Part shown: piece by piece, positions 3,208 through 61,794 of the stretch | Numbering within the stretch: the first letter of the stretch is position 1 | Layout: each line of letters opens with the position of its first letter | NCBI GenBank assembly: GCA_019897865.1 | Contig: GCA_019897865.1_4532.1 | Origin: a phage | Length of the DNA stretch: 64,000 nt | Direction: 5' to 3' (one strand) | Program-made: the position numbers and the translations under genes | The notes under the pieces: model-generated | The model's database searches: none | The model's input: only the letters and a program-made list of their open reading frames with translations | What the model was told of the DNA's origin: nothing

Positions 3208-3236
3208 TTGACAACTTTACGGAAGGGACTTATACT
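3208..3236 (+). promoter_or_regulatory. Sigma70-like promoter
   Basis: TTGACA (3208-3213), 17-bp spacer, TATACT (3231-3236); AAGAGGAG RBS and ATG at 3270 downstream. Confidence 0.6.
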
Positions 3237-3269: not shown

Positions 3270-3701
3270 ATGCGTATGACAATCGATCTGAATGCAAAAG
3301 TTAAAGCTGCTGGTGCTCTGGGCGCTGGTGTTATTAAACACAAACAAGCGTTGGCATTTGCCATCCCACATATGATTGTTGAGGATCATCCTGAAGAGTT
3401 TGCTGTAAAAGTTGTTGAGAACAATGTCTCTGTTATTGAACATCTTCCAACTGGACGTTCTTACCGTGTTGTTTCTTCTAGAGGTTTCCGTTTCGATGTA
3501 AGCCCTTCTTTCACAAAAGGTGCTGGTCGTAGTAAAGTGGGTATTCTTTCTTACAAATATTATATCGATAAAGTTGCAGATGGTGTCGCATTCTGTCGTG
3601 TAAGTGAAGGTAAAGTAGATATCATCTTTAAAAATACCAAAAACATGGTTATTTCTGACGATGGGAAAGTTGACCTCACTATTGAGTTCGCTAACAACTA
3701 A
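3270..3701 (+). CDS. Hypothetical protein
   Basis: 143-aa ORF with strong promoter and RBS; no recognisable motif. Confidence 0.6.
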   Translation: MRMTIDLNAKVKAAGALGAGVIKHKQALAFAIPHMIVEDHPEEFAVKVVENNVSVIEHLPTGRSYRVVSSRGFRFDVSPSFTKGAGRSKVGILSYKYYIDKVADGVAFCRVSEGKVDIIFKNTKNMVISDDGKVDLTIEFANN

Positions 3702-8328: not shown

Positions 8329-8335
8329 TTAAAGC

Positions 8336-8365
8336 TTGACAATATTAAACATTTTATGATAGGAT
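8336..8365 (+). promoter_or_regulatory. Promoter-like element (cTTGACAA family), possibly giving a near-leaderless transcript
   Basis: TTGACA 8336-8341, about 18-bp spacer, TAGGAT; ATG at 8374 has no SD. Spacer shares ...AAACATTTTATG... with tRNA promoter 2. Confidence 0.4.
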
Positions 8366-8373
8366 AGCATTCA

Positions 8374-8766
8374 ATGACTGAACGTTCTAAGATAGCTGTT
8401 GAAACTGTTTATGGAAACTATACCAGTTTGACACTAGTTGAGAAAAATGTTGTAGGTCTTGACAACTCTTTTTATTTTCAAATTTTGGTTATTCAAGGTG
8501 GAAACAAGAAGCTAACTGCTCGTGTTGAAACATCTGAAATAATTGAAACCACTGTTACAAACAAAGAATTCATTTCACTGCAAGATACAATCCGAAACGT
8601 TATAGACGAAGAAGGCAAAGCTGCCACAATTAAACTCGGAGGTTTCCCAGTGCAAATAGTTCATTTTCCTAATGGTGAAATTGGAGTTGGAATAGGTAAA
8701 GGTAAATACCTGTTAGAGCAAGATGATATGGAAAGACTCCGCTCTTTCTGTGCAAAATTAATGTAA
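8374..8766 (+). CDS. Hypothetical protein
   Basis: 130-aa ORF. Confidence 0.5.
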   Translation: MTERSKIAVETVYGNYTSLTLVEKNVVGLDNSFYFQILVIQGGNKKLTARVETSEIIETTVTNKEFISLQDTIRNVIDEEGKAATIKLGGFPVQIVHFPNGEIGVGIGKGKYLLEQDDMERLRSFCAKLM

Positions 8767-14538: not shown

Positions 14539-17500
14539 TTAGGTTGTTGGCACATCTACTACTGGCGTTGGGCGAATAACCGCAGTATTACCTACAGAAA
14601 CATTACTGGAATCATTAGGTATGGTTTTAATTCTAACTCCAGCACTTGTAGGCGTTACAATTGGATCTGCAATGTCTATTTTAACTGGGTTAGTCCACGT
14701 ATCATTATCTTGATAAGGTGCACGAGTAATAACTGTGTCCAAATCTGCTCCACCTACGCCAGCACCAGGAATACGGATACGTGTCCCTGCTGACAGAGGG
14801 TAATGATACAACCAAGAAGCATTTGTTGCTGTCCCGTTAGGAGTCAAGTTCTGTGTCAGGAAGGTATCTCCTGCCTGTGTAGCTCGAATACCGAAAGCTG
14901 GGATATCTGGAATATATGCCCCACTTGTTGTTACAAGGAAGAACGTATTATCCGCTTTGACTATCATATCACCTTTGTCAAACTCTTTCCCTGTTGGGAA
15001 ATGCATTCCATCAATGTTTCGACTAGGATTAGGCTCTAAGTAATAAACTTTGCCCGTTGTCCCTACAATAGCTCCAATACCACCTGCGATATTGGTATAC
15101 ATATTAGCTTCAACATTACAGTTGACACGATGAATATCCGAGTAACGGCAACGGCTCCACTGTGGACGACCAGTAACCATCGTCTTGCCATCTGGGTAAC
15201 AGTTTACGTTAACCATTTCAAGAACAGATTTTTCTCTACGGAAGAATCCATCATAAAATGTTCCTGGACCAGATTCAGGTTGACCAACACAATCGAAGAT
15301 ATTACAGGTGATGTTAGACATTGAAAGCCAAGAAGCTATACCGAACAACTGCAATGCAGCGCAACGAATATTTTCAAAGCTAACTCTGTTTTCATAACCT
15401 GGCCCAGCGGAAACTCCCGCAAAAACACGCCCAGTTTTGGTGTGAATGTTACGAACAGAATAGTTAAAACATGGGTTTGAAGGTCTACCCTGTGCCGGAA
15501 CTACCGGATTACCCTCTTCGTCCAGAACTGCGTTAGTTCCCCACTCCAAATAAATCATACGGATATTACTTGCAAGTGTGCTACCGTCTGTTTTAGGCTC
15601 TCCATAAACACCGTCAATCGTAAAATCTTTACTTCCATACATTACAACTGCGCCAGTTGCCAAACCTGTCCCAACAGATACGGTTTGATCTGGATCGCCA
15701 TGAATGTTTTCGATAGAAATATTACGACCAACTTCTACGTGGACAATCTGACGGCAACGTTTTGCAAAAACGTTACGAATTGTAATATTCTTGCAATATT
15801 GATCATCAGGGATTCCGTAACCATATGGTCCTTTACCAGCTACACCGATACCGATACCCCAGTTGGACAGAGGAATAGGAGCGTTAGTCCCATCGATATT
15901 AGACAGGTAAATATTCTCAATCACACAACCATCATCATAATGTTTATTGATGACATTCAGTTCTATCGCATCACCTTGCATGTCCATGAAGGTAAGGTTA
16001 CGGAAGACACCGCGTGTTACTGGTTCTCCTGTCCCTTGTTGAAGGATGCCATATAACCCGTTTTTAAAAGTACAATTATCAATTTCAAAAGTACCTGATA
16101 TTGGGTTGCCTTGGAATACCAAGCTACCAACTTGACCTGCGCGAGGAGCACCGTCCCACAAACAATCGAACATGCGCACAGCACCACCCCAATACATAAC
16201 ACGAGAGTTACGGAAAGTTGTGCCTTCTACTGTAGCATTCTGCACACGATAGTCGCGTTGACCACGGAACACACCACCACGCAAAGTGATACCTTGAATA
16301 TCAAAAGAGCTTGTCGTGAAAGTCATATCGCAACCGTAAGCATCGAGAATCTTACTTTTCGAAGCTTTTGCTGCTAACAGTGCCGCCTGGAAAGCTGCTT
16401 CTGGTGTGGTATAGGTAGTTGTATTGTTAGCAAATTCTGACAAGTAGACAACATCGAATAAATCGTTGTATGTTCCACCACGAGGGGTTAACAGTCCTTC
16501 CGTATTAGTTAGAACCCATGCGTTTGGACCTAATCCACCGCTTGTCTCTAACGTGTCAGAGGCCAAAATACTTTTTGGTAAACTTCCAGCCCAACGATAA
16601 CGACCAGCACCACGTCCAATCGTCTGATTTTTAGCTGTCAGAGTTACATTATTACCAAAGCTTGTAGGCAAATGAACAAACTGTCCACGTTCAACAGCTA
16701 ATGCAGAAAGATCTACAGATCCGCCAGAATAAGTCATTACTCCAGAAACAGACAAAGATGTTAAAGTCCCTGTGATGTTAGGAGGCAATGTGTAGGAAGA
16801 TTGTGCTACTGGATCATACAGAGCTTTAATCCCTGTTAATGATTGACCCGCTGTTGCGTAAGCTACTTCATCATCCAACAAACCGTATTTACGAGCAATA
16901 GTTTGTAAAGGTACTTTATCCATGCTTTCTGTCAGTTCTTCAGTTTTTGTTTCTAAACTGACAAGACGGTTCTCTAGATTAGGATCTGTATCTGCTGAAG
17001 CTACGATTTTACCAATATAAGCGAAAAGCTTGTTTGGCAGTCCTGTTGCAGGATCGTGTCCCAAAGGTTCAGATAAGATGATCTTACTATCTTCTATACG
17101 GAAAGCTTCCCCCAGAACCTGAATAACACCATTGATCGTAACAATAGCACTATCAAAGATGTAAGGAGGACTGATTACTGTTTCATAACCAGTTGCACCA
17201 GAATATACCCAAGGTGTGACTTCTGTTGCCAATTGTTCTGTCTTCAATCCCCACAATACCCAGTTGTTATCTCCTACTGGAGTACCTTGCATAGGGATTG
17301 GGTTTACCAATGTAGCATTAGGAGCATAATAATAACCGCTCAATACCCCATTCTGAAAATAACGTAGTTGGTTAAAAACTGTTTCGTTTGTGCCTTGCGC
17401 CCAATCCAATGGGCTTTTAAAGAAAAAGTTGTCAACAAGGGCTTTTCTCAGGGTTGGTATCAACCCTGATTCTGTTTCAATACTCTCTGTAGCACTTCCA

Positions 17501-33562: not shown

Positions 33563-33688
33563 GATAACCTCGTAGTAATGATAATGCCAAAAGGAAGATG
33601 CAAGATCTTCCCATATTGATTATTGTAACACATATAGAAACTTCGTGTCAAGGGAAACGAAAAAACCCCGCCGAAGCGAGGTATTTTA

Positions 33689-39085: not shown

Positions 39086-39506
39086 AAGACCAGGAGTTGT
39101 TTTGATCGTCTAATATTGCAACACAGTGATGATGGACTAAGAAAGATGTTCTGGTCCAATCTTTAAGGGAATAAACAGAATACCATTTACCATCTATCAA
39201 TATCTGATCTGATAACTGTTCTGTTCCTTGTTGTAACCCCTTCATTTCTGTTTTAGTCCAGAAACTATATTGAGCCTTAGATCTGTAACCTTCAGGTAGT
39301 GCATTTAGTGTTTTACCAGATATCGGTTGTAAGCTTGCAGCTTCAATAGTAAATGGTTCATATTCTACACTACTTTCTAAGTTAGCAATAACTGAACCAA
39401 CGGCCTCTTTGTAGACTCGTCTACGACCTTGGTATTCAGTTAGATCAAGGAGAGTAAATTGATCTAGTAACACTTGTATCTCCTTTTTAGTATACATCAA
39501 AAACAA
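39057..39506 (-). CDS. Head-tail joining protein
   Basis: 149 aa, overlaps neighbour. Confidence 0.4.
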   Translation of the reverse strand: MFLMYTKKEIQVLLDQFTLLDLTEYQGRRRVYKEAVGSVIANLESSVEYEPFTIEAASLQPISGKTLNALPEGYRSKAQYSFWTKTEMKGLQQGTEQLSDQILIDGKWYSVYSLKDWTRTSFLVHHHCVAILDDQNNSWSYGTEGGNFG

Positions 39507-43551: not shown

Positions 43552-44031
43552 TTAGTCCTTCTTGACTTTAACGCCCATTGCGCCTATACTCAAACCTTTA
43601 AGAACGCCGTCTTTACGAGCTTGATATAATTCAGGGTCGTTGAATTGGATTTTAACGAGGGGAGTTCCTTCCACAACGAGTTCGTCACCAATGTAACAAT
43701 CGACTTCATTTACCCAAGCTTTAATTGGAGAAAACTTATCGGTGTTCTTCATGTGACCAAGATTACCACTAATGTTGGTAATATTCTCATTGAAGTTGTC
43801 AACCATCTTCCTGATTTCCAAATCAGACATGCGCTCTCCGTGGAGATCGTCTTCTTCAGGTGGACAATACAAGACCTCAATAACCTGCATCTTTTCTTCA
43901 TCAAATTTATTTTGTTTGACTAGAGTTTCAGGTTTTTGAGATGGTATAGAATCTTGTTGGGATTCAGAATTCTCTTTAAAACCAGCGAAGGTTTTGAAGA
44001 GTTCCCACAGTGTATCTTTATTGAGTTCCAT
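43552..44031 (-). CDS. Head morphogenesis protein (possible prohead protease/accessory)
   Basis: 159 aa directly after the portal gene, AAGAGG RBS. Confidence 0.4.
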   Translation of the reverse strand: MELNKDTLWELFKTFAGFKENSESQQDSIPSQKPETLVKQNKFDEEKMQVIEVLYCPPEEDDLHGERMSDLEIRKMVDNFNENITNISGNLGHMKNTDKFSPIKAWVNEVDCYIGDELVVEGTPLVKIQFNDPELYQARKDGVLKGLSIGAMGVKVKKD

Positions 44032-44067: not shown

Positions 44068-44096
44068 AGTCTACAGGATATTTGTTGTTTTGTCAA
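44068..44096 (-). promoter_or_regulatory. Promoter (CTATTGACAA family) upstream of head genes
   Basis: - strand CTATTGACAA with TTGACA at 44096..44091, 17-bp spacer, TAGACT. Confidence 0.45.
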
Positions 44097-44124
44097 TAGA
44101 AAAATTAAAAAATATTAAATATTT

Positions 44125-45690
44125 TTAATTCGACAGGTTTTGTGCTGAAGGATCTAAAGCAGAAACAGTATCAGACGTTCCAGTTCCCGCTGTAGCTAAA
44201 CCATCTCCTGATCGTGAAGTTTTGTCAGGCATATAGTTATCCATGAATTCAAAGAATTTCTCTTTATTGGCAACAATATCGTCAGGGATACGATATTCAA
44301 AACCAATTTTTTCAAGGAACTCGTTAATAACTTCTGGGGTTAAAGGTATTGCACCAGAGGCTACCAACTGCTGAATAGCTTTAGCATTTACTTCAATATC
44401 AGGATCACCCATTTCACCACTGACAAACTTAGGCATATCTTCATCAGAAAGGAAGATATTGTTTAGTCGTAGTGTTTGAGGGATCAGTTGAGAGTTTATA
44501 GCTTCTACAACAATATCTACATCTCGCTCAATAAAATGAGACAATAGTGTTTGTTTGTTGTCAGAAAGCGCAAAACTTCCTGCATCACCATCACCCATAA
44601 TCAACACACCCGCACCAAAGCGGTTATAAATATCTAGCTTGCGTTGTTTGATTAGTGCTTGAGTGTCAAACTGTTTACCCGTGCCATCAACACCTTGGAA
44701 TACAAGATCGTATTGACGCATCACTGTGCCTTCATAAACGTCCGAAGGCAATACCATGTAGGCTTGCTCACCAGAGTGCAGGTTAGCGATGTTGGCTTGG
44801 AGAACTCGAAGAGATTGTGCTTCATCCCCAGCAGGATCTAAAGATGCCCTGTTTAGAATGTCACTTGGAACCTTAAGAACTGGCATACCGCCTAAATCTT
44901 TAGATACCCCAATAACCTCAAATTCCTGAATAAGAGATTTTTCACGCCAGCTACGATATACAGCTAAAAGCGGACTAACTCCTAGTGGGTTATTCTCTGT
45001 AATGTTACTACCAACAAATAAAACTTTACTGAAAGGAATTTCTTTAATACCAGTTTCTAAAGTTGTATTACCTGGAGCTAACATTGTATTGGTGATATTC
45101 TGGTTAACAGATAGAATAGAACGTCCGTCTGCCGAATATGTAAAAGGTTGAGCCATGTGAAGAGTGTCTTGTGGTCTAAAAGCCAGTTTGGTCAATCGCC
45201 AATACCCAAAGTAAGGACTTTTAGGATCTTCATCCAACTCATAAACTTTCTCTGCGAATGCAAAACCATATTGCTTATATGTCAAAAGTGATCTAACATA
45301 TTGACGTAGAGGGGCTTGCATATTGCGTAACATGTAATCAATAAACTTAGCAGCTTTTCTTGACTTTGCCGAGTTTACATTGTATTTTATCTTGAAATCA
45401 AAGAATGCTCTATCTACAAAGATATATGTAGCGTCAAGAGCAGTAGCTACATCAGGGTCTTCACCCATCTCTTTAAAAGTGCGAATACATTCTGGGAAAC
45501 GAGTCTCATAAGGTTGCATGAAATTCGTAAATGCTTTGATTGAGTTTAATCCGATCGTTCCTATTTCAGGTGACAGGAGTAACGTTTTCTCTTTCTCTGC
45601 CTCTTTTGTTGGAGAGAGAGCAGCTTTATTTGCAGCACCTTTGTCCCAGTATTCTGACTTTTTAGTGTACGTTCTTTTTCCTGTTGACAC
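44125..45690 (-). CDS. Portal protein
   Basis: 521 aa directly downstream of terminase large subunit; GTG start with GGAGG RBS. Confidence 0.65.
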   Translation of the reverse strand: MSTGKRTYTKKSEYWDKGAANKAALSPTKEAEKEKTLLLSPEIGTIGLNSIKAFTNFMQPYETRFPECIRTFKEMGEDPDVATALDATYIFVDRAFFDFKIKYNVNSAKSRKAAKFIDYMLRNMQAPLRQYVRSLLTYKQYGFAFAEKVYELDEDPKSPYFGYWRLTKLAFRPQDTLHMAQPFTYSADGRSILSVNQNITNTMLAPGNTTLETGIKEIPFSKVLFVGSNITENNPLGVSPLLAVYRSWREKSLIQEFEVIGVSKDLGGMPVLKVPSDILNRASLDPAGDEAQSLRVLQANIANLHSGEQAYMVLPSDVYEGTVMRQYDLVFQGVDGTGKQFDTQALIKQRKLDIYNRFGAGVLIMGDGDAGSFALSDNKQTLLSHFIERDVDIVVEAINSQLIPQTLRLNNIFLSDEDMPKFVSGEMGDPDIEVNAKAIQQLVASGAIPLTPEVINEFLEKIGFEYRIPDDIVANKEKFFEFMDNYMPDKTSRSGDGLATAGTGTSDTVSALDPSAQNLSN

Positions 45691-45759: not shown

Positions 45760-45788
45760 ATAATACACTTTAAAGTGACTTTTGTCAA
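45760..45788 (-). promoter_or_regulatory. Sigma70-like promoter upstream of portal gene
   Basis: - strand TTGACA (45788..45783), 17-bp spacer, TATTAT (45765..45760). Confidence 0.5.
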
Positions 45789-48865: not shown

Positions 48866-49162
48866 TTAGATTACGATCTTTTTAGGAACGTCATCTGTAT
48901 TCTGCACGGCAGGGGTTTCTTCTTCCATAGCTTCATAATGTTCTTCTAACCATTCTTCTACTTGCTCTTTAATAGCTTTAGCTGCTTGGAAGCGGAGAGG
49001 TTTTGCTGCATCCTTATCATTAACAAGTTCAACAATATACCGCATAGCTTCTAAATAATGCTCTGCAAATAATTCTTTTACACTTGCTTGCGCCGCATCC
49101 ATTGCGTAAATCTGTTGCATTTCGGCTGTTGGTCTTCCACGACCACGTTTTAGTTTAGGCAT
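48866..49162 (-). CDS. Small DNA-binding-like protein with AT-hook-like motif (monocistronic unit)
   Basis: 98 aa; N-terminal KRGRGRP motif; own promoter (TTGACT-17-TAAGAT at 49212..49184), strong AGGAGG RBS, own terminator. Confidence 0.45.
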   Translation of the reverse strand: MPKLKRGRGRPTAEMQQIYAMDAAQASVKELFAEHYLEAMRYIVELVNDKDAAKPLRFQAAKAIKEQVEEWLEEHYEAMEEETPAVQNTDDVPKKIVI

Positions 49163-49234
49163 AATAAAATCCTCCTAAACTTTATCTTAACATATAAAAA
49201 ATAATAAGTCAAGTTTTATTCAATAGATAGCAAA

Positions 49235-49260
49235 AAGCCTCCAATAAGGAGGCCAATAAA
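49235..49260 (-). terminator. Rho-independent terminator at the end of the tRNA array
   Basis: GCCTCC-TTATT-GGAGGC hairpin followed on the - strand by TTTTTGC. Confidence 0.55.
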
Positions 49261-49369
49261 TACTGTTAATTTGAAATGCTTTATTATGATTGTGCGTTAA
49301 GGAGTCGCACCCCTCCATCTTAGAAGGAACCAGGCAAGGTCTTCAAAGATACCACTGGCAAGCGATATT

Positions 49370-49448
49370 TGGAGGCGGGAATTGGATTTGAACCAATGAT
49401 CTCCAGCATATGAAACTGGCGAGGACGACCAAACTCCTCTATCCCGCT
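49370..49448 (-). tRNA. tRNA-Met (anticodon CAT); initiator/elongator/Ile-lysidine not resolved
   Basis: Hand-folded cloverleaf: T-arm ATTGG-TTCAAAT-CCAAT, anticodon loop TTCATAT, encoded CCA; A1-C72 mismatch at acceptor top. Confidence 0.6.
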
Positions 49449-49454
49449 ATTATG

Positions 49455-49526
49455 TATCCCGTGCTGGATTCGAACCAGCGTCACAAGAAATTGTGGATCT
49501 CTTATCCTGTAAGTCTAACGGGAAAC
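49455..49526 (-). ncRNA. tRNA-like element (canonical T-arm and acceptor, no canonical anticodon arm)
   Basis: T-arm GCTGG-TTCGAAT-CCAGC and near-complementary acceptor strands, but the central region forms CACAA-TTTC-TTGTG instead of a 5-bp/7-nt anticodon arm. Confidence 0.3.
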
Positions 49527-49600
49527 TGGTTGTTTCGACAAGAATCGAACTTGTGTCTCACGATTATCAGTCGTGGGTTCTACCATTGAACTACGAAACA
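49527..49600 (-). tRNA. tRNA-Ile (anticodon GAT)
   Basis: Perfect cloverleaf: acceptor TGTTTCG/CGAAACA, D GTTC/GAAC, anticodon stem CACGA/TCGTG with loop CTGATAA, T-arm ACAAG-TTCGATT-CTTGT, encoded CCA. Confidence 0.75.
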
Positions 49601-49606
49601 TTTAAT

Positions 49607-49683
49607 TGGTCGGAATTGCAGGATTCGAACCTGCGACCCTACGCTCCCAAAGCGTATGCTCTACCAAACTGAGCTAAATTCCG
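49607..49683 (-). tRNA. tRNA-Pro (anticodon TGG)
   Basis: Acceptor CGGAATT/AATTCCG, D GCTC/GAGC, anticodon stem TACGC/GCGTA with loop TTTGGGA, T-arm GCAGG-TTCGAAT-CCTGC, CCA. Confidence 0.75.
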
Positions 49684-49688
49684 TTATA

Positions 49689-49764
49689 TGGCTGGTCTGT
49701 CTGGATTTGAACCAAACCTACGACAGTCAAAGTGTCGTGTGCTACCGGACTACACTACAAACCA
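49689..49764 (-). tRNA. tRNA-Gln (anticodon TTG)
   Basis: Acceptor TGGTTTG/CAGACCA (U1-A72, G73), anticodon stem CGACA/TGTCG with loop CTTTGAC, T-arm TTTGG-TTCAAAT-CCAGA, CCA. Confidence 0.7.
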
Positions 49765-49862
49765 ATAAATCATTTAATGAAGGGCAACCAGAAGAGGTGT
49801 GAGAGAAGGAGAAAACCATGAGTAAAAGAGAAAGTTTTCTGGCAACCCTTTATTAAATAATT

Positions 49863-49936
49863 TGGAGCGTTCTACGAGGATCGAACTCGTGCCGCCGACT
49901 TGGAAGGACGGAATGCTACCGCTACACCAAGAACGC
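49863..49936 (-). tRNA. tRNA-Gly (anticodon TCC)
   Basis: Acceptor GCGTTCT/AGAACGC, anticodon loop CTTCCAA, T-arm ACGAG-TTCGATC-CTCGT, discriminator U, CCA; one mismatch in anticodon stem. Confidence 0.65.
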
Positions 49937-49947
49937 CCTACATCTTT

Positions 49948-49977
49948 ACTATACTACATTTTACTATTGATTGTCAA
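49948..49977 (-). promoter_or_regulatory. Promoter (CTATTGACAA family) for downstream tRNA block
   Basis: - strand CTATTGACAA with TTGACA at 49977..49972, about 18-bp spacer, TATAGT; ends about 12 nt before tRNA-Gly. Confidence 0.5.
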
Positions 49978-50250
49978 TAGTTTTATTGAGTGGGACAGTG
50001 ACGAGTATCCCATTGGGTGACTAGCCCTACGTTCGGTAAGCTAACTTAAAATAATACAAAACCAAAGTCAAATATTATTCTTCGTTGCTGTCGATGGGAG
50101 AGCCGCTTCTTCTTTTGCCCCATCCAACCCTACTCCGGTCAAGTTTCAGGTAACTCTTTTTGTGATCAACACAATACTAAGAACACTGTCTTTCGAACAG
50201 ACCTTGTGCACAGGATACGACGATCAATCACAGTGCCCTTAATGTTGTGT

Positions 50251-50325
50251 TGGTGCTCCCACTCTGAATCGAACAGAGATCCACGGATTACAAAACCGTT
50301 GTAATAGCCATTATACTATAGGAGC
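50251..50325 (-). tRNA. tRNA-Thr (anticodon TGT)
   Basis: Acceptor GCTCCTA/TGGGAGC, anticodon loop TTTGTAA, T-arm CTCTG-TTCGATT-CAGAG, A73, CCA; loop-closing pair mismatched. Confidence 0.6.
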
Positions 50326-50331
50326 AAAGCT

Positions 50332-50408
50332 GGGACTCGGCAGGATTCGATACCTGCAATTCCAGAAGCCTCTTGGCGACTGGGGGTTTACCTTAACTCT
50401 ACAAGTCC
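50332..50408 (-). ncRNA. tRNA-like element with extended central hairpin in place of the anticodon arm
   Basis: Good acceptor (GGACTTG/CGAGTCC) and T-arm-like GCAGG...CCTGC (8-nt loop), but middle forms CCAGTCGCC-AAGA-GGCTTCTGG; no CCA. Confidence 0.3.
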
Positions 50409-50415
50409 ATAATTC

Positions 50416-50501
50416 TGGCGATGAGTATAGGATTTGAACCTATATCGTTCTTTCGAACACGGATTAACAGTCCGCCGCTTAAACCATTCAGCCAACTCAT
50501 C
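50416..50501 (-). tRNA. Class II (long variable arm) tRNA with anticodon GTT (Asn codons)
   Basis: 86 nt: acceptor GATGAGT/ACTCATC, 3-bp D stem, anticodon stem GCGGA/TCCGT with loop CTGTTAA, variable arm GTTC-GAAA-GAAC, T-arm ATAGG-TTCAAAT-CCTAT, G73, CCA. Confidence 0.55.
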
Positions 50502-50507
50502 TTAATT

Positions 50508-50595
50508 TGGTGGTGAGTGATGGAGTCGAACCACCCGAATCGCAATGATAACAGATTTACAGTCTGCCCCGCTACCCCTACGGAATTAACTCACC
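50508..50595 (-). tRNA. tRNA-Tyr (anticodon GTA), class II
   Basis: 88 nt: acceptor GGTGAGT/ACTCACC, anticodon stem GCAGA/TCTGT with loop CTGTAAA, long variable region, T-arm GGTGG-TTCGACT-CCATC, A73, CCA. Confidence 0.65.
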
Positions 50596-50725
50596 TAAAT
50601 ACTAATATTTAAATTCTTTTTAAAATAGCCAGTGTTCACACCACTAACTATGATTTATCGGTAAGATGGTGGGGGCCATCTGCCGAAAGTTTACTCTATT
50701 AAAGTAAGCCATATTAAAAAGAACT

Positions 50726-50811
50726 TGGCGGTAGATGTAGGACTCGAACCTACACGCCGTTTCCGACTACAGTTTAGCAAACTGTCGTGGCTACCATTTC
50801 ACCAATCTACC
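50726..50811 (-). tRNA. tRNA-Ser (anticodon GCT), class II
   Basis: 86 nt: acceptor GGTAGAT/ATCTACC, anticodon stem ACAGT/ACTGT with loop TTGCTAA, variable arm GTCG-GAAA-CGGC, T-arm GTAGG-TTCGAGT-CCTAC, G73, CCA. Confidence 0.7.
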
Positions 50812-50816
50812 TAATC

Positions 50817-50907
50817 TGGCGGAAGGAGGGAGAGTCGAACTCCCAAGGCTCTTTCAAGCTCGGCGGTTTTCAAGACCGTTTTCGTCGCCACGTCGATTTG
50901 CCCTTCC
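50817..50907 (-). tRNA. tRNA-Ser (anticodon TGA), class II
   Basis: About 91 nt: acceptor GGAAGGG/TCCTTCC, anticodon loop CTTGAAA, variable arm GCTT-GAAA-GAGC, T-arm GGGAG-TTCGACT-CTCCC, G73, CCA. Confidence 0.65.
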
Positions 50908-50911
50908 ATAC

Positions 50912-50945
50912 TTATAATCTAACATAAAATAATGTTTGTTGTCAA
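50912..50945 (-). promoter_or_regulatory. Promoter (CTATTGACAA family) for the tRNA-Ser block
   Basis: - strand CTATTGACAA (TTGACA 50945..50940), 18-bp spacer ...AAACATTATTTTATGT, TAGATT, then tRNA-Ser about 9 nt downstream. Confidence 0.5.
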
Positions 50946-51141
50946 TAGTTTTTTAAAACATTTTACCATGAATGGTGACTCCACCAACCCCCGTTCTCCA
51001 CGAACGGTGCTCTTCGAGCATTTATGTCTTCTAATATAACCGTGGCCTTTGTTTATAATGTCTGACATATTTGCCTCATTCTCTGCCACCATGATCAGTA
51101 GTGGGTTCAAATCACTTGAGCTAATTCATGTTAAAATGTTC

Positions 51142-51216
51142 TGGTGTCTTTACAAGGAATCGAACCTTGACTAAGAGTTTAGAAGACTCCTGTGCTATCC
51201 ATTACACCATAAAGAC
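51142..51216 (-). tRNA. tRNA-Arg (anticodon TCT)
   Basis: Acceptor GTCTTTA/TAAAGAC, D GTGT/GCAC, anticodon stem GGAGT/ACTCT with loop CTTCTAA, T-arm CAAGG-TTCGATT-CCTTG, CCA. Confidence 0.7.
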
Positions 51217-51218
51217 TT

Positions 51219-51293
51219 TGGTGGCCCTGGCTGGTTTCGATCCAGCTACCTATCGGTTATGAGCCGACAGCTCTCCCATTGAGCTACAGGGCC
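51219..51293 (-). tRNA. tRNA-Met (anticodon CAT), elongator-type; unusual T-loop ATCGAAA
   Basis: Acceptor GGCCCTG/CAGGGCC, D GCTC/GAGC, anticodon stem GTCGG/CCGAT with loop CTCATAA, T-arm GCTGG-ATCGAAA-CCAGC, A73, CCA. Confidence 0.65.
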
Positions 51294-51497
51294 ATAAATG
51301 TGGTAACAGAGACGCTGACGATTGTAGAGAACCGCTACATTCTCTAAGACCAAGCCCAACTTTCAGCGTAAAAGTTCTTGAGCCGAGACTATTCCTTTTC
51401 CTCTTTGGTAGCTAACCTCTGAAGAAGTAGTCTCTAACACTACCGCAGTGCAAGCCCCTCTTAACAAAAGTCAACGACCCTGTTACCACACTTGATG

Positions 51498-51532
51498 AAC
51501 GTATCCTAACATATGAAGGATACGTTTGTCAA
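51498..51532 (-). repeat. 29-bp near-perfect palindrome abutting a third CTATTGACAA motif
   Basis: AACGTATCCT-aaCATATGa-AGGATACGTT (10-bp arms, 51498-51526) directly next to tgtcaa (51527-51532); about 200 nt upstream of tRNA-Met. Confidence 0.5.
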
Positions 51533-51539
51533 TAGTTAT

Positions 51540-51788
51540 TTAAGCATATTCTGCTACTTCTTCACTATCTTTCTTTTCCAGAAGAGCAACAACCAAAGCT
51601 TCTGCGTTAAAAGTGTTAATTTCAAGATCCATCTCTCGCATCAGAGCCAAGAAATCAATAACTTTAACATCTTTAGTTATTACAATAGAAGTTGTACCAT
51701 TGTTTTCAGATGTGTATTTTTCTGGATGGAAAAGAAAAACTGCATTGCCGTTACCATCTTCAAACACGTGTTTTTCTAATAGAGACAT
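51540..51788 (-). CDS. Hypothetical protein (82 aa)
   Basis: ATG at 51788 preceded by AGGAGG (5-nt spacer); the track ORF 51540..51854 is probably an N-terminal over-extension. Confidence 0.5.
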   Translation of the reverse strand: MSLLEKHVFEDGNGNAVFLFHPEKYTSENNGTTSIVITKDVKVIDFLALMREMDLEINTFNAEALVVALLEKKDSEEVAEYA

Positions 51789-51796
51789 TGTTCCTC

Positions 51797-52048
51797 CTAA
51801 TCTGTTAGTTGTTCGTCCTCTACCAAGTTTGACACGAGAACGTCTGTTATACATTGATGCTGATAAACCCTTTCGGGACTATCATCAAAAGCCAAACCTG
51901 TGCAAATAGAACAGAGGTCTGATTCCTTGATGACTCCATTTTTATCACGTCTGGAGTGGTTTGTCAAATGCCTATTACAAGCACGGCACCTAAAATAAAA
52001 GCTATTTTGCATATATCCTTCGAACCCCAAATGGGGAGTGATCGGCAT
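51797..52048 (-). CDS. Small zinc-ribbon protein
   Basis: 83 aa with CRAC...CSIC; stop adjacent to RBS of the next gene. Confidence 0.45.
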   Translation of the reverse strand: MPITPHLGFEGYMQNSFYFRCRACNRHLTNHSRRDKNGVIKESDLCSICTGLAFDDSPERVYQHQCITDVLVSNLVEDEQLTD

Positions 52049-52085
52049 CTCCTCACTTCTAGTTTAGCACGAAGGATATCTTAAG

Positions 52086-61726: not shown

Positions 61727-61755
61727 TTGACTTGCGGGATTAGTTATGATATTAT
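61727..61755 (+). promoter_or_regulatory. Strong sigma70-like promoter
   Basis: TTGACT (61727-61732), 17-bp spacer, TATTAT (61750-61755). Confidence 0.6.
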
Positions 61756-61784
61756 GCCTACCTACTTAATGAGGTAGGCTTTTT
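61756..61784 (+). terminator. Rho-independent terminator overlapping the promoter discriminator/+1 region
   Basis: GCCTACCT-ACTTAATG-AGGTAGGC (8-bp stem) followed by TTTTT, immediately before the AGGAGG RBS of the next gene. Confidence 0.6.
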
Positions 61785-61794
61785 AGGAGGCGTT

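Follow-up and report, generated by a model that had tools for sequence, protein, structure and literature searches.

The DNA analyzed here is a stretch of 64,000 nucleotides of a phage (GenBank assembly GCA_019897865.1, contig GCA_019897865.1_4532.1; this whole stretch is referred to as the window), in which a tRNA array and the head gene cluster are each preceded by copies of a 10-mer, CTATTGACAA. Over its full length, the tRNA region (positions 49000-52500) shares 99.2% identity with that of Escherichia phage tuntematon, and it shares 98-99% with that of about 64 other phAPEC8-like phages (Stephanstirmvirinae, Phapecoctavirus). We assign the window to the genome of a Phapecoctavirus, a phAPEC8-like E. 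coli myovirus. It maps to approximately 50.5-113 kb of tuntematon, with a few segments replaced. A replication block on the plus strand (1 to ~9700) is followed on the minus strand by a long block (~9735-52300), which contains the tail, head, portal, terminase and lysis genes together with the tRNA array. A divergent AT-rich region (52300-52750) separates the latter from a plus-strand block of small genes and genes of DNA metabolism. The orientation of genes was taken from the direction of these transcription blocks, from the tuntematon and ASO2A annotations and from lists of open reading frames (ORFs).

The tRNA array spans 49370..51293 on the minus strand and contains 10 tRNAs according to ARAGORN. 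A tRNA-Tyr (50511-50595, minus strand) was found by Rfam and tRNAscan only. A tRNA-Ser(TGA) or Sec-like gene (50821-50907, minus strand) was missed by ARAGORN in the window and was scored by Rfam as Sec-like at 37 bits, below threshold; the same tRNA-Ser(TGA) was called by tRNAscan in the Phapecoctavirus ASO2A and by ARAGORN in a relative of the phiWec179 type (L007). With these two added, the array consists of 12 tRNAs rather than 10. Two more stretches, at ~50330-50415 and ~49449-49526, may be tRNA-like remnants.

The repeated 10-mer and its probable promoter context

The window holds four exact copies of CTATTGACAA, all on the minus strand (44090-44099, 49971-49980, 50939-50948 and 51526-51535). 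An earlier note, made from the sequence of this DNA, had placed the 10-mer upstream of three tRNA blocks and of the head gene cluster, and the four copies are indeed there. Dinucleotide shuffles gave a mean expectation of 0.21 copies, and four or more were seen in 0 of 100 shuffles. When one mismatch was allowed, there was no clear excess in the window (13 sites, against 7.3 expected), hence the signal is carried by the exact copies. All four are intergenic and have the orientation of the genes or RNAs downstream. Every copy includes a perfect TTGACA (6/6), followed after 17-18 bp by a TAnnnT hexamer. The complete tuntematon genome contains five exact copies, the fifth at 14982, all of them intergenic and co-oriented. 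Three of the five genomic copies fall inside 1.6 kb.

The copies within the tRNA array belong to three candidate promoters, which we designate P1, P2 and P3. P1 (51503..51535, minus strand) reads aaataaCTA, TTGACA (51532-51527), an A and N17, with TGT (51511-51509) abutting the -10 hexamer TAGGAT (51508-51503) at a spacer of 18 bp. It is located just past the stop codon of a small ORF (51540-51788), upstream of a non-coding stretch of 204 nt, tRNA-Met(CAT) and tRNA-Arg. P2 (50916..50948, minus strand) consists of aaaatgttttaaaaaaCTA, TTGACA (50945-50940) and an 18-bp spacer with TGT ahead of TAGATT (50921-50916). It precedes tRNA-Ser(TGA), followed by Ser(GCT), Tyr, Asn and Thr. Its upstream sequence, AAAATGTTTTAAAAAACTA, resembles the full UP consensus. 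P3 (49948..49980, minus strand; labelled merely 'repeat_region' in tuntematon) reads aataaaaCTA, TTGACA (49977-49972), N18 and TATAGT (49953-49948), without a TGn, and precedes tRNA-Gly, Gln, Pro, Ile and Met. The -10 hexamer of P2 is 8 nt from the start of tRNA-Ser(TGA) (50907), and its predicted leader would begin some 2 nt before the mature tRNA 5' end. The corresponding distance at P3 is 11 nt to tRNA-Gly (start 49936), with a predicted transcription start 3-5 nt upstream of the mature 5' end. These distances vary in orthologs (8-15 nt for P2 and 11-23 nt for P3), so the short spacing between start and tRNA is probably incidental. The three promoters share about 15 nt (AAnAACTATTGACAA), and they have an A-tract and the CTA in common. 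They differ in their spacers, -10 hexamers and downstream sequences; the likeness ends at the -35 region.

The fourth copy is part of the head-cluster promoter (44068..44099, minus strand), which reads tttttCTA, TTGACA (44096-44091), N17 and TAGACT (44073-44068), likewise without a TGn. It occupies a 93-bp gap between the portal gene (44125-45690, phrog_113) and a gene for an XkdF-like prohead protease (43552-44031), the latter leading the decoration and major-head genes. The -10-like hexamers of these four sites are those that the note had listed, TATAGT, TAGATT and TAGGAT at a spacer of 18 bp and TAGACT at 17 bp. So is the close variant on the plus strand, CTTGACAATATT at 8335-8346, ahead of the gene at 8374. 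The promoter there (8335..8365) has the form C, TTGACA (8336-8341), and an 18-bp spacer with TGA before TAGGAT (8360-8365). The spacer string AAACATT(A)TTTTATG, which had been noticed in two promoters, is common to the sites at 8336 and 50945. The ATG at 8374, which opens a 130-amino-acid phrog_16560 gene, lies 8 nt past the TAGGAT and lacks a Shine-Dalgarno sequence, and the alignment to the PHROG profile begins at residue 1; on these grounds, the mRNA of this gene may be leaderless.

Conservation in orthologous promoters

Orthologous loci were identified in IMG/VR relatives anchored on the large terminase (TerL 85-90% identical; L007, L008-L010 and L012) and in phage J-01, which is phi92-like. 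Promoters are present at orthologous positions for P1, P2, P3, the head promoter and two further window promoters, P4 and a promoter ahead of the portal gene. Mean pairwise identity is highest for the -35 hexamer (0.97), followed by the A after it (0.87), the -10 hexamer (0.83) and the TGn (0.78). The 3-nt prefix, CTA in the window, is at 0.64, alongside the spacer (0.62), the upstream 22 nt (0.57) and the downstream 12 nt (0.66). In the orthologs the CTA becomes GTA, GTG, TAC or CTC, and in phi92-like phages it is moved by one base (CTAC/CTAG-TTGACAA).

The individual sites follow the same course. The P1 ortholog of L007/phiWec179 keeps TTGACAA, TGT and a TAAGAT hexamer, with another spacer and a GTA prefix. 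At P2, L007 and L008-L010 show no change in TTGACAA, TGT or TAGATT, while the prefix is variable (GTG, TAC) and the spacer is not conserved. The P3 orthologs (L007, L008-L010 and L012) keep TTGACAA and TA(T/G)AGT. The head promoter is conserved in all related lineages, with GTA in place of CTA; there, the entire intergenic region, spacer and downstream bases included, is nearly invariant across lineages. The P4 type of promoter extends as far as Seunavirus (Vequintavirinae), in which TTGACA-N17-TGA-TAACAT is found ahead of the phrog_3330 gene. By this comparison, the conserved core is TTGACA(A), and the pattern fits the prediction for a sigma-70 promoter under purifying selection, and not that for a 10-bp protein-binding box.

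The place of the CTA was also evaluated within one genome. Tuntematon contains 50 co-oriented TTGACA-N16-18-TAnnnT sites. CTA is the most frequent 3-nt prefix among them, yet it accounts for only 7 of the 50. The CTA prefix is a mild preference and not a defining feature of the promoters. The combination of CTA and the trailing A is best read as the commonest local variant of weakly constrained flanks, and not as a separate recognition element. The earlier proposal of a phage-specific promoter class built on the 10-mer is not supported by these observations. Its other component, host sigma70-type promoters placed and oriented to serve the tRNA array and the head genes, is supported by the orthologs, in which the -35, the TGn and the -10 are under selection.

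Probable recognition by the host polymerase, and the alternatives

The sites are very probably functional promoters of the sigma-70 type. In all likelihood, the four CTATTGACAA sites are canonical E-sigma70 promoters, in which the 10-mer is the E. coli -35 element with its weakly constrained neighbors. The similarity to E. coli sigma-70 promoters includes the TTGACA, the 17-18-bp spacer, TGn at -15/-14, TAnnnT, an A/T-rich tract at about -40 to -55 and the location upstream of stable-RNA genes. Promoters with an extended -10 or an UP element are represented by rrn P1 and by the strong early promoters of T5, T7 (A1) and lambda. The window sites differ from the E. coli promoters in the middle bases of their -10 hexamers, which are non-consensus but conserved, and in their AT-rich discriminators (acgttca, ataagta and aaagatg). 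In recognition, TTGACA would be read by region 4 of sigma-70, TGn by region 3 and TAnnnT by region 2. The A-tract ~5-10 bp upstream of the -35, akin to a proximal UP element, would be the contact for the alpha C-terminal domains. With a perfect -35 and a TGn, the non-consensus middle bases of the -10 could be tolerated, hence the promoters should be strong. The strong driving that the note attributed to them would follow from their closeness to consensus. No modification of the host polymerase should be needed for their use, which could begin in the first minute of infection, and they are probably active from its start. Host rRNA and tRNA promoters have GC-rich discriminators; given the AT-rich ones here, stringent control would not be expected. 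The copy at 44096 would drive the prohead-protease and capsid genes.

Several points weigh against this assignment. The middle bases of the -10 hexamers TAGATT, TAGGAT and TAGACT are unusual, and both P3 and the head promoter are without a TGn. The conservation figures rest on roughly three to five independent lineages, as L008-L010 are mutually close. A consensus sigma-70 promoter before late (head) genes leaves temporal control unexplained. Lastly, no transcription start site, RNA-seq, reporter or transcriptome data for Stephanstirmvirinae (phAPEC8, phi92) were found in the searchable literature; for this reason we infer promoter function from sequence. The same holds for the reading of the sites by E-sigma70, for their strength and timing, and for transcription starts placed 6-9 nt past the -10 hexamer.

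Four other explanations were weighed. That the sites are chance matches or non-functional relics is extremely unlikely. A low-threshold scan of 42-56 kb for sigma-70 sites showed no enrichment (36 sites, with 36.3 in shuffles), and the 10-mer with one mismatch is barely enriched, both as chance would have it. Such a generic scan is flat; only the high-scoring and composite patterns are informative. The composite patterns and the exact 10-mer are enriched 20- to 50-fold, all copies are intergenic and co-oriented, and the functional elements are selectively conserved. Alternatively, the whole of CTATTGACAA might be a phage-specific recognition unit, its flanks and -35 read together by a phage factor or a modified RNA polymerase that would set apart a separate temporal class. 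The exact 10-mer is over-represented even among the promoters of a single genome, with CTA and the trailing A seen together in 4 of the 50 tuntematon promoters (5 if a site with a CATAAT -10 is counted) against 1.08 expected from column frequencies, and the ~15 nt common to the three tRNA promoters would also fit such a unit. Against it, the orthologs swap the CTA yet keep TTGACAA, TGn and -10, with the flanks no more conserved than the spacer, and in the phi92-like phages the CTA is displaced by one base. The 280 annotated coding sequences of the tuntematon genome include neither an RNA polymerase nor a sigma factor. We consider this explanation quite improbable, if less so than chance.

A somewhat better, though still unlikely, alternative is that the identity of the 10-mer among the array promoters reflects common descent. 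In this case, the promoters would be functional, a module would have been duplicated or gene-converted within the array and to 8336, and the extra letters would be historical. The clustering of three of the five genomic copies, with their common A-tract and CTA, speaks for descent, as does the AAACATT(A)TTTTATG string in the spacers of both P2 and 8336. The divergence of P1, P2 and P3 beyond the -35 region speaks against it. The P2 spacer, moreover, is not kept in orthologs, so its match to that of 8336 may be chance in AT-rich sequence. The alternative with the most to recommend it, although doubtful, concerns timing: the 44096 promoter and other sigma-70-like sites of the structural module would not be free-running early promoters but would fire late only, under changes that the phage induces, for instance an activator, a switch of the anti-sigma or Srd-like kind, or a link to replication. 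The genes downstream of 44096 are of late function (prohead protease, major head protein), and the near-invariance of the whole intergenic region exceeds the needs of a plain promoter; a further element of control may be concealed there. The paper on phage rV5 brought up both a switch of the Srd type and a late motif of its own (PMC3606486). Conversely, 44096 is a good sigma-70 promoter as it stands, matching at 10 of the 12 hexamer positions with T/A-rich sequence upstream, and no activator box was identified, although no search was aimed at a late motif. We favor ordinary sigma-70 promoters read by the host polymerase over each of these explanations.

Known phage promoter types were considered as well. 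The T4 middle promoter, in which a MotA box at -30 replaces the -35, was ruled out, as all sites have a TTGACA -35. The T4 late promoter, which has TATAAATA as its -10 and no -35, was ruled out because TATAAATA is at the -10 of no site. The early hairpin cassette of Phapecoctavirus was ruled out too, since no window site has its module of a 16-bp spacer, gTATCACaTAG and a GC hairpin. The sole TAGGGCG near a window promoter, at 49940, is the 5' end of tRNA-Gly.

This cassette is a side observation from outside the window (loci L003). In tuntematon (MN850618), about 18 copies precede small ORFs at 6.3-17.2 kb on the minus strand and at 39267 on the plus strand. Each is arranged as an A-tract, TTGACA-N16-TA(A/T)(G/A)(A/C)T, gTATCACaTAG, a GC hairpin, a ribosome-binding site and the small ORF. 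The hairpin (GGGCGGC-AATGGT-GCCGCC) has a covarying stem and a conserved loop, and the cassette appears to be a module of a promoter and a 5'-terminal mRNA hairpin. It resembles the window sites in the A-tract before TTGACA and in the TAnnnT -10, and differs from them in the fixed 16-bp spacer, the gTATCACaTAG and the mRNA hairpin. The repeat that is distinctive for the phage genus is this early cassette and not the CTATTGACAA set. The CTATTGACAA promoters are new members of a well-known kind, and no new promoter type is at hand.

The promoter family is broader than the five sites of the earlier note. When sites were scored on both hexamers and the TGn, the window contained 37 strong sigma-70-like sites, of which 29 were co-oriented with local transcription; the shuffles contained 23.2 ± 4.5. 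The composite TTGACA-N15-TGnTAnnnT occurs four times (0.08 expected), in every case intergenic and co-oriented. Across the 50 tuntematon sites, A makes up 62-64% of the bases found 5-10 nt upstream of the -35, constituting an UP-like tract. The credible promoters in the window number about 10: the four CTATTGACAA sites, those at 3208, 8336, 33651, 45788 and 49212, and less surely one at 52983. The 6/6 match to TTGACA is also seen at 8336, 33651, 45788 and 3208. The promoter at 3208..3236 (plus strand; TTGACA-N17-TATACT) is ahead of a gene at 3270. The one at 33622..33651 (minus strand; TTGACA-N18 with TGT, then TACAAT) lies right behind a terminator-like GC hairpin and T-run, ahead of a tail-module gene. 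A terminase-portal promoter (45760..45788, minus strand; TTGACA-N17-TATTAT) is situated between the large terminase and portal genes. P4 (49184..49212, minus strand; TTGACT-N17 with TGT, then TAAGAT) is right behind the terminator of the array and ahead of a 98-amino-acid phrog_3330 gene. The less certain promoter at 52983 is on the plus strand. A TGn is present in P1, P2, 8336, 33651, 49212 and 52983. A doubtful site on the plus strand (61727-61790; TTGACT-N17-TGA-TATTAT) has a high score, and its -10 runs into a terminator hairpin (GCCTACCT...AGGTAGGC, then TTTTT); it may be a promoter, part of a terminator or both.

Comparable predictions have been made for related phages. For rV5, Kropinski et al. 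(2013, PMC3606486) predicted 33 sigma-70-like promoters, in early as well as late regions. An extended -10 was present in 11, and the authors suggested that the phage may leave the host polymerase without reprogramming. rV5 is of a related group but of another subfamily and genus, and that paper does not include the tRNA-array promoters of phAPEC8-like phages or their copies of CTATTGACAA. Nine promoters were assigned in the Phapecoctavirus ASO2A by motif transfer (PMC10612097), and its GenBank record lists no promoter in the tRNA region. The present assignments fix a map of transcription units for the tRNA and head region of Phapecoctavirus, a widely isolated genus of therapeutic phages, with value for annotation and engineering. 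They indicate host-type promoters on early and structural genes alike.

The transcription unit and its structured RNAs

A strong intrinsic terminator (49236..49254, minus strand; GGCCTCC...GGAGGCT, then TTTTT) closes the tRNA operon. No convincing intrinsic terminator was found between P1, P2 and P3, so the three would act in tandem, with the downstream tRNAs transcribed from up to three promoters. Sub-threshold Rfam matches in this region, one RyhB-like at the terminator and one to YrlA overlapping tRNAs, were regarded as noise.

Two structured RNAs are embedded in the unit. RNA-A (51294..51497, minus strand) is the 204-nt non-coding leader between P1 and tRNA-Met, and it would be transcribed from P1. 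It is closed by a helix of ~23 bp. The minimum free energy (MFE) of its fold has a z-score of -5.9 relative to shuffles, and compensatory changes are seen in 14 of 73 predicted pairs among three lineages. Its occurrence was confined to Phapecoctavirus-like phages, the phiWec179 type (81% identity) among them.

RNA-B (50950..51135, minus strand; ~185 nt) is located between tRNA-Arg and P2, and its MFE z-score is -4.1. Its homologs, at ~70% identity, reside inside the tRNA clusters of Seunavirus (Vequintavirinae) phages such as 4MG, GAP31, FENT2 and KE22. In the alignment, 96% of the cells are paired, and 16 of 57 pairs are changed on both sides, compared to 5.9 in shuffles (0/500) and 3-5 in slid controls. 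At its 5' end, this RNA is like a tRNA acceptor strand, continuing into U8-A9 and a GCUC D stem. The 3' end is a short hairpin adjoining the acceptor 3' strand. In public records, the RNA-B locus is mostly unannotated or given as a tiny hypothetical ORF. A pattern scan of IMG/VR for more homologs returned only five loci, of which four belonged to lineages already identified and one was a spurious match on a pair of tandem tRNAs.

Single-base insertions and deletions between lineages argue against a coding function for RNA-A and RNA-B. Neither matches any family of Rfam 15 at E ≤ 1. The tRNA cluster of phage T4 also has stable RNAs, namely species 1 and 2, or rnaC and rnaD, of unknown function, co-transcribed with its tRNAs; the parallel to RNA-A and RNA-B is one of analogy only, in that structured RNAs lie inside a phage tRNA unit. 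We tentatively suggest that P1-P3 might define a self-contained stable-RNA operon of 12 tRNAs and at least two undescribed conserved structured RNAs, its promoters tuned for high expression independent of the stringent response; we hold this as a possibility that falls short of the probable. The two conserved structured RNAs, absent from Rfam, are a more useful lead than the promoters themselves.

Beyond the terminator, the 98-amino-acid phrog_3330 gene (48866-49162, minus strand) has P4 as its own, deeply conserved promoter. Its product is labelled 'RNA polymerase sigma factor RpoS' in SKA64 and 'small terminase' in phAPEC8_ev052. The former label was rejected, as the best Pfam E value was 0.05, to unrelated families, and a PDB sequence search gave no sigma domain. 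The 'small terminase' label had no support in the Pfam and PDB sequence searches.

On the other side of the array, the divergent intergenic region contains, at 52300-52500, an imperfect inverted repeat with arms of 56 nt (52302-52357 and 52427-52482). The outer ends of the repeat are rich in GTAC (GTACTGTAC...GTACGGAGTACAGTAC), with more GTAC copies up to 52500, and the inner parts are nearly pure A/T. The region bears a repeat_region annotation in tuntematon. The inverted repeat may serve as a replication origin or as a hub of regulation.

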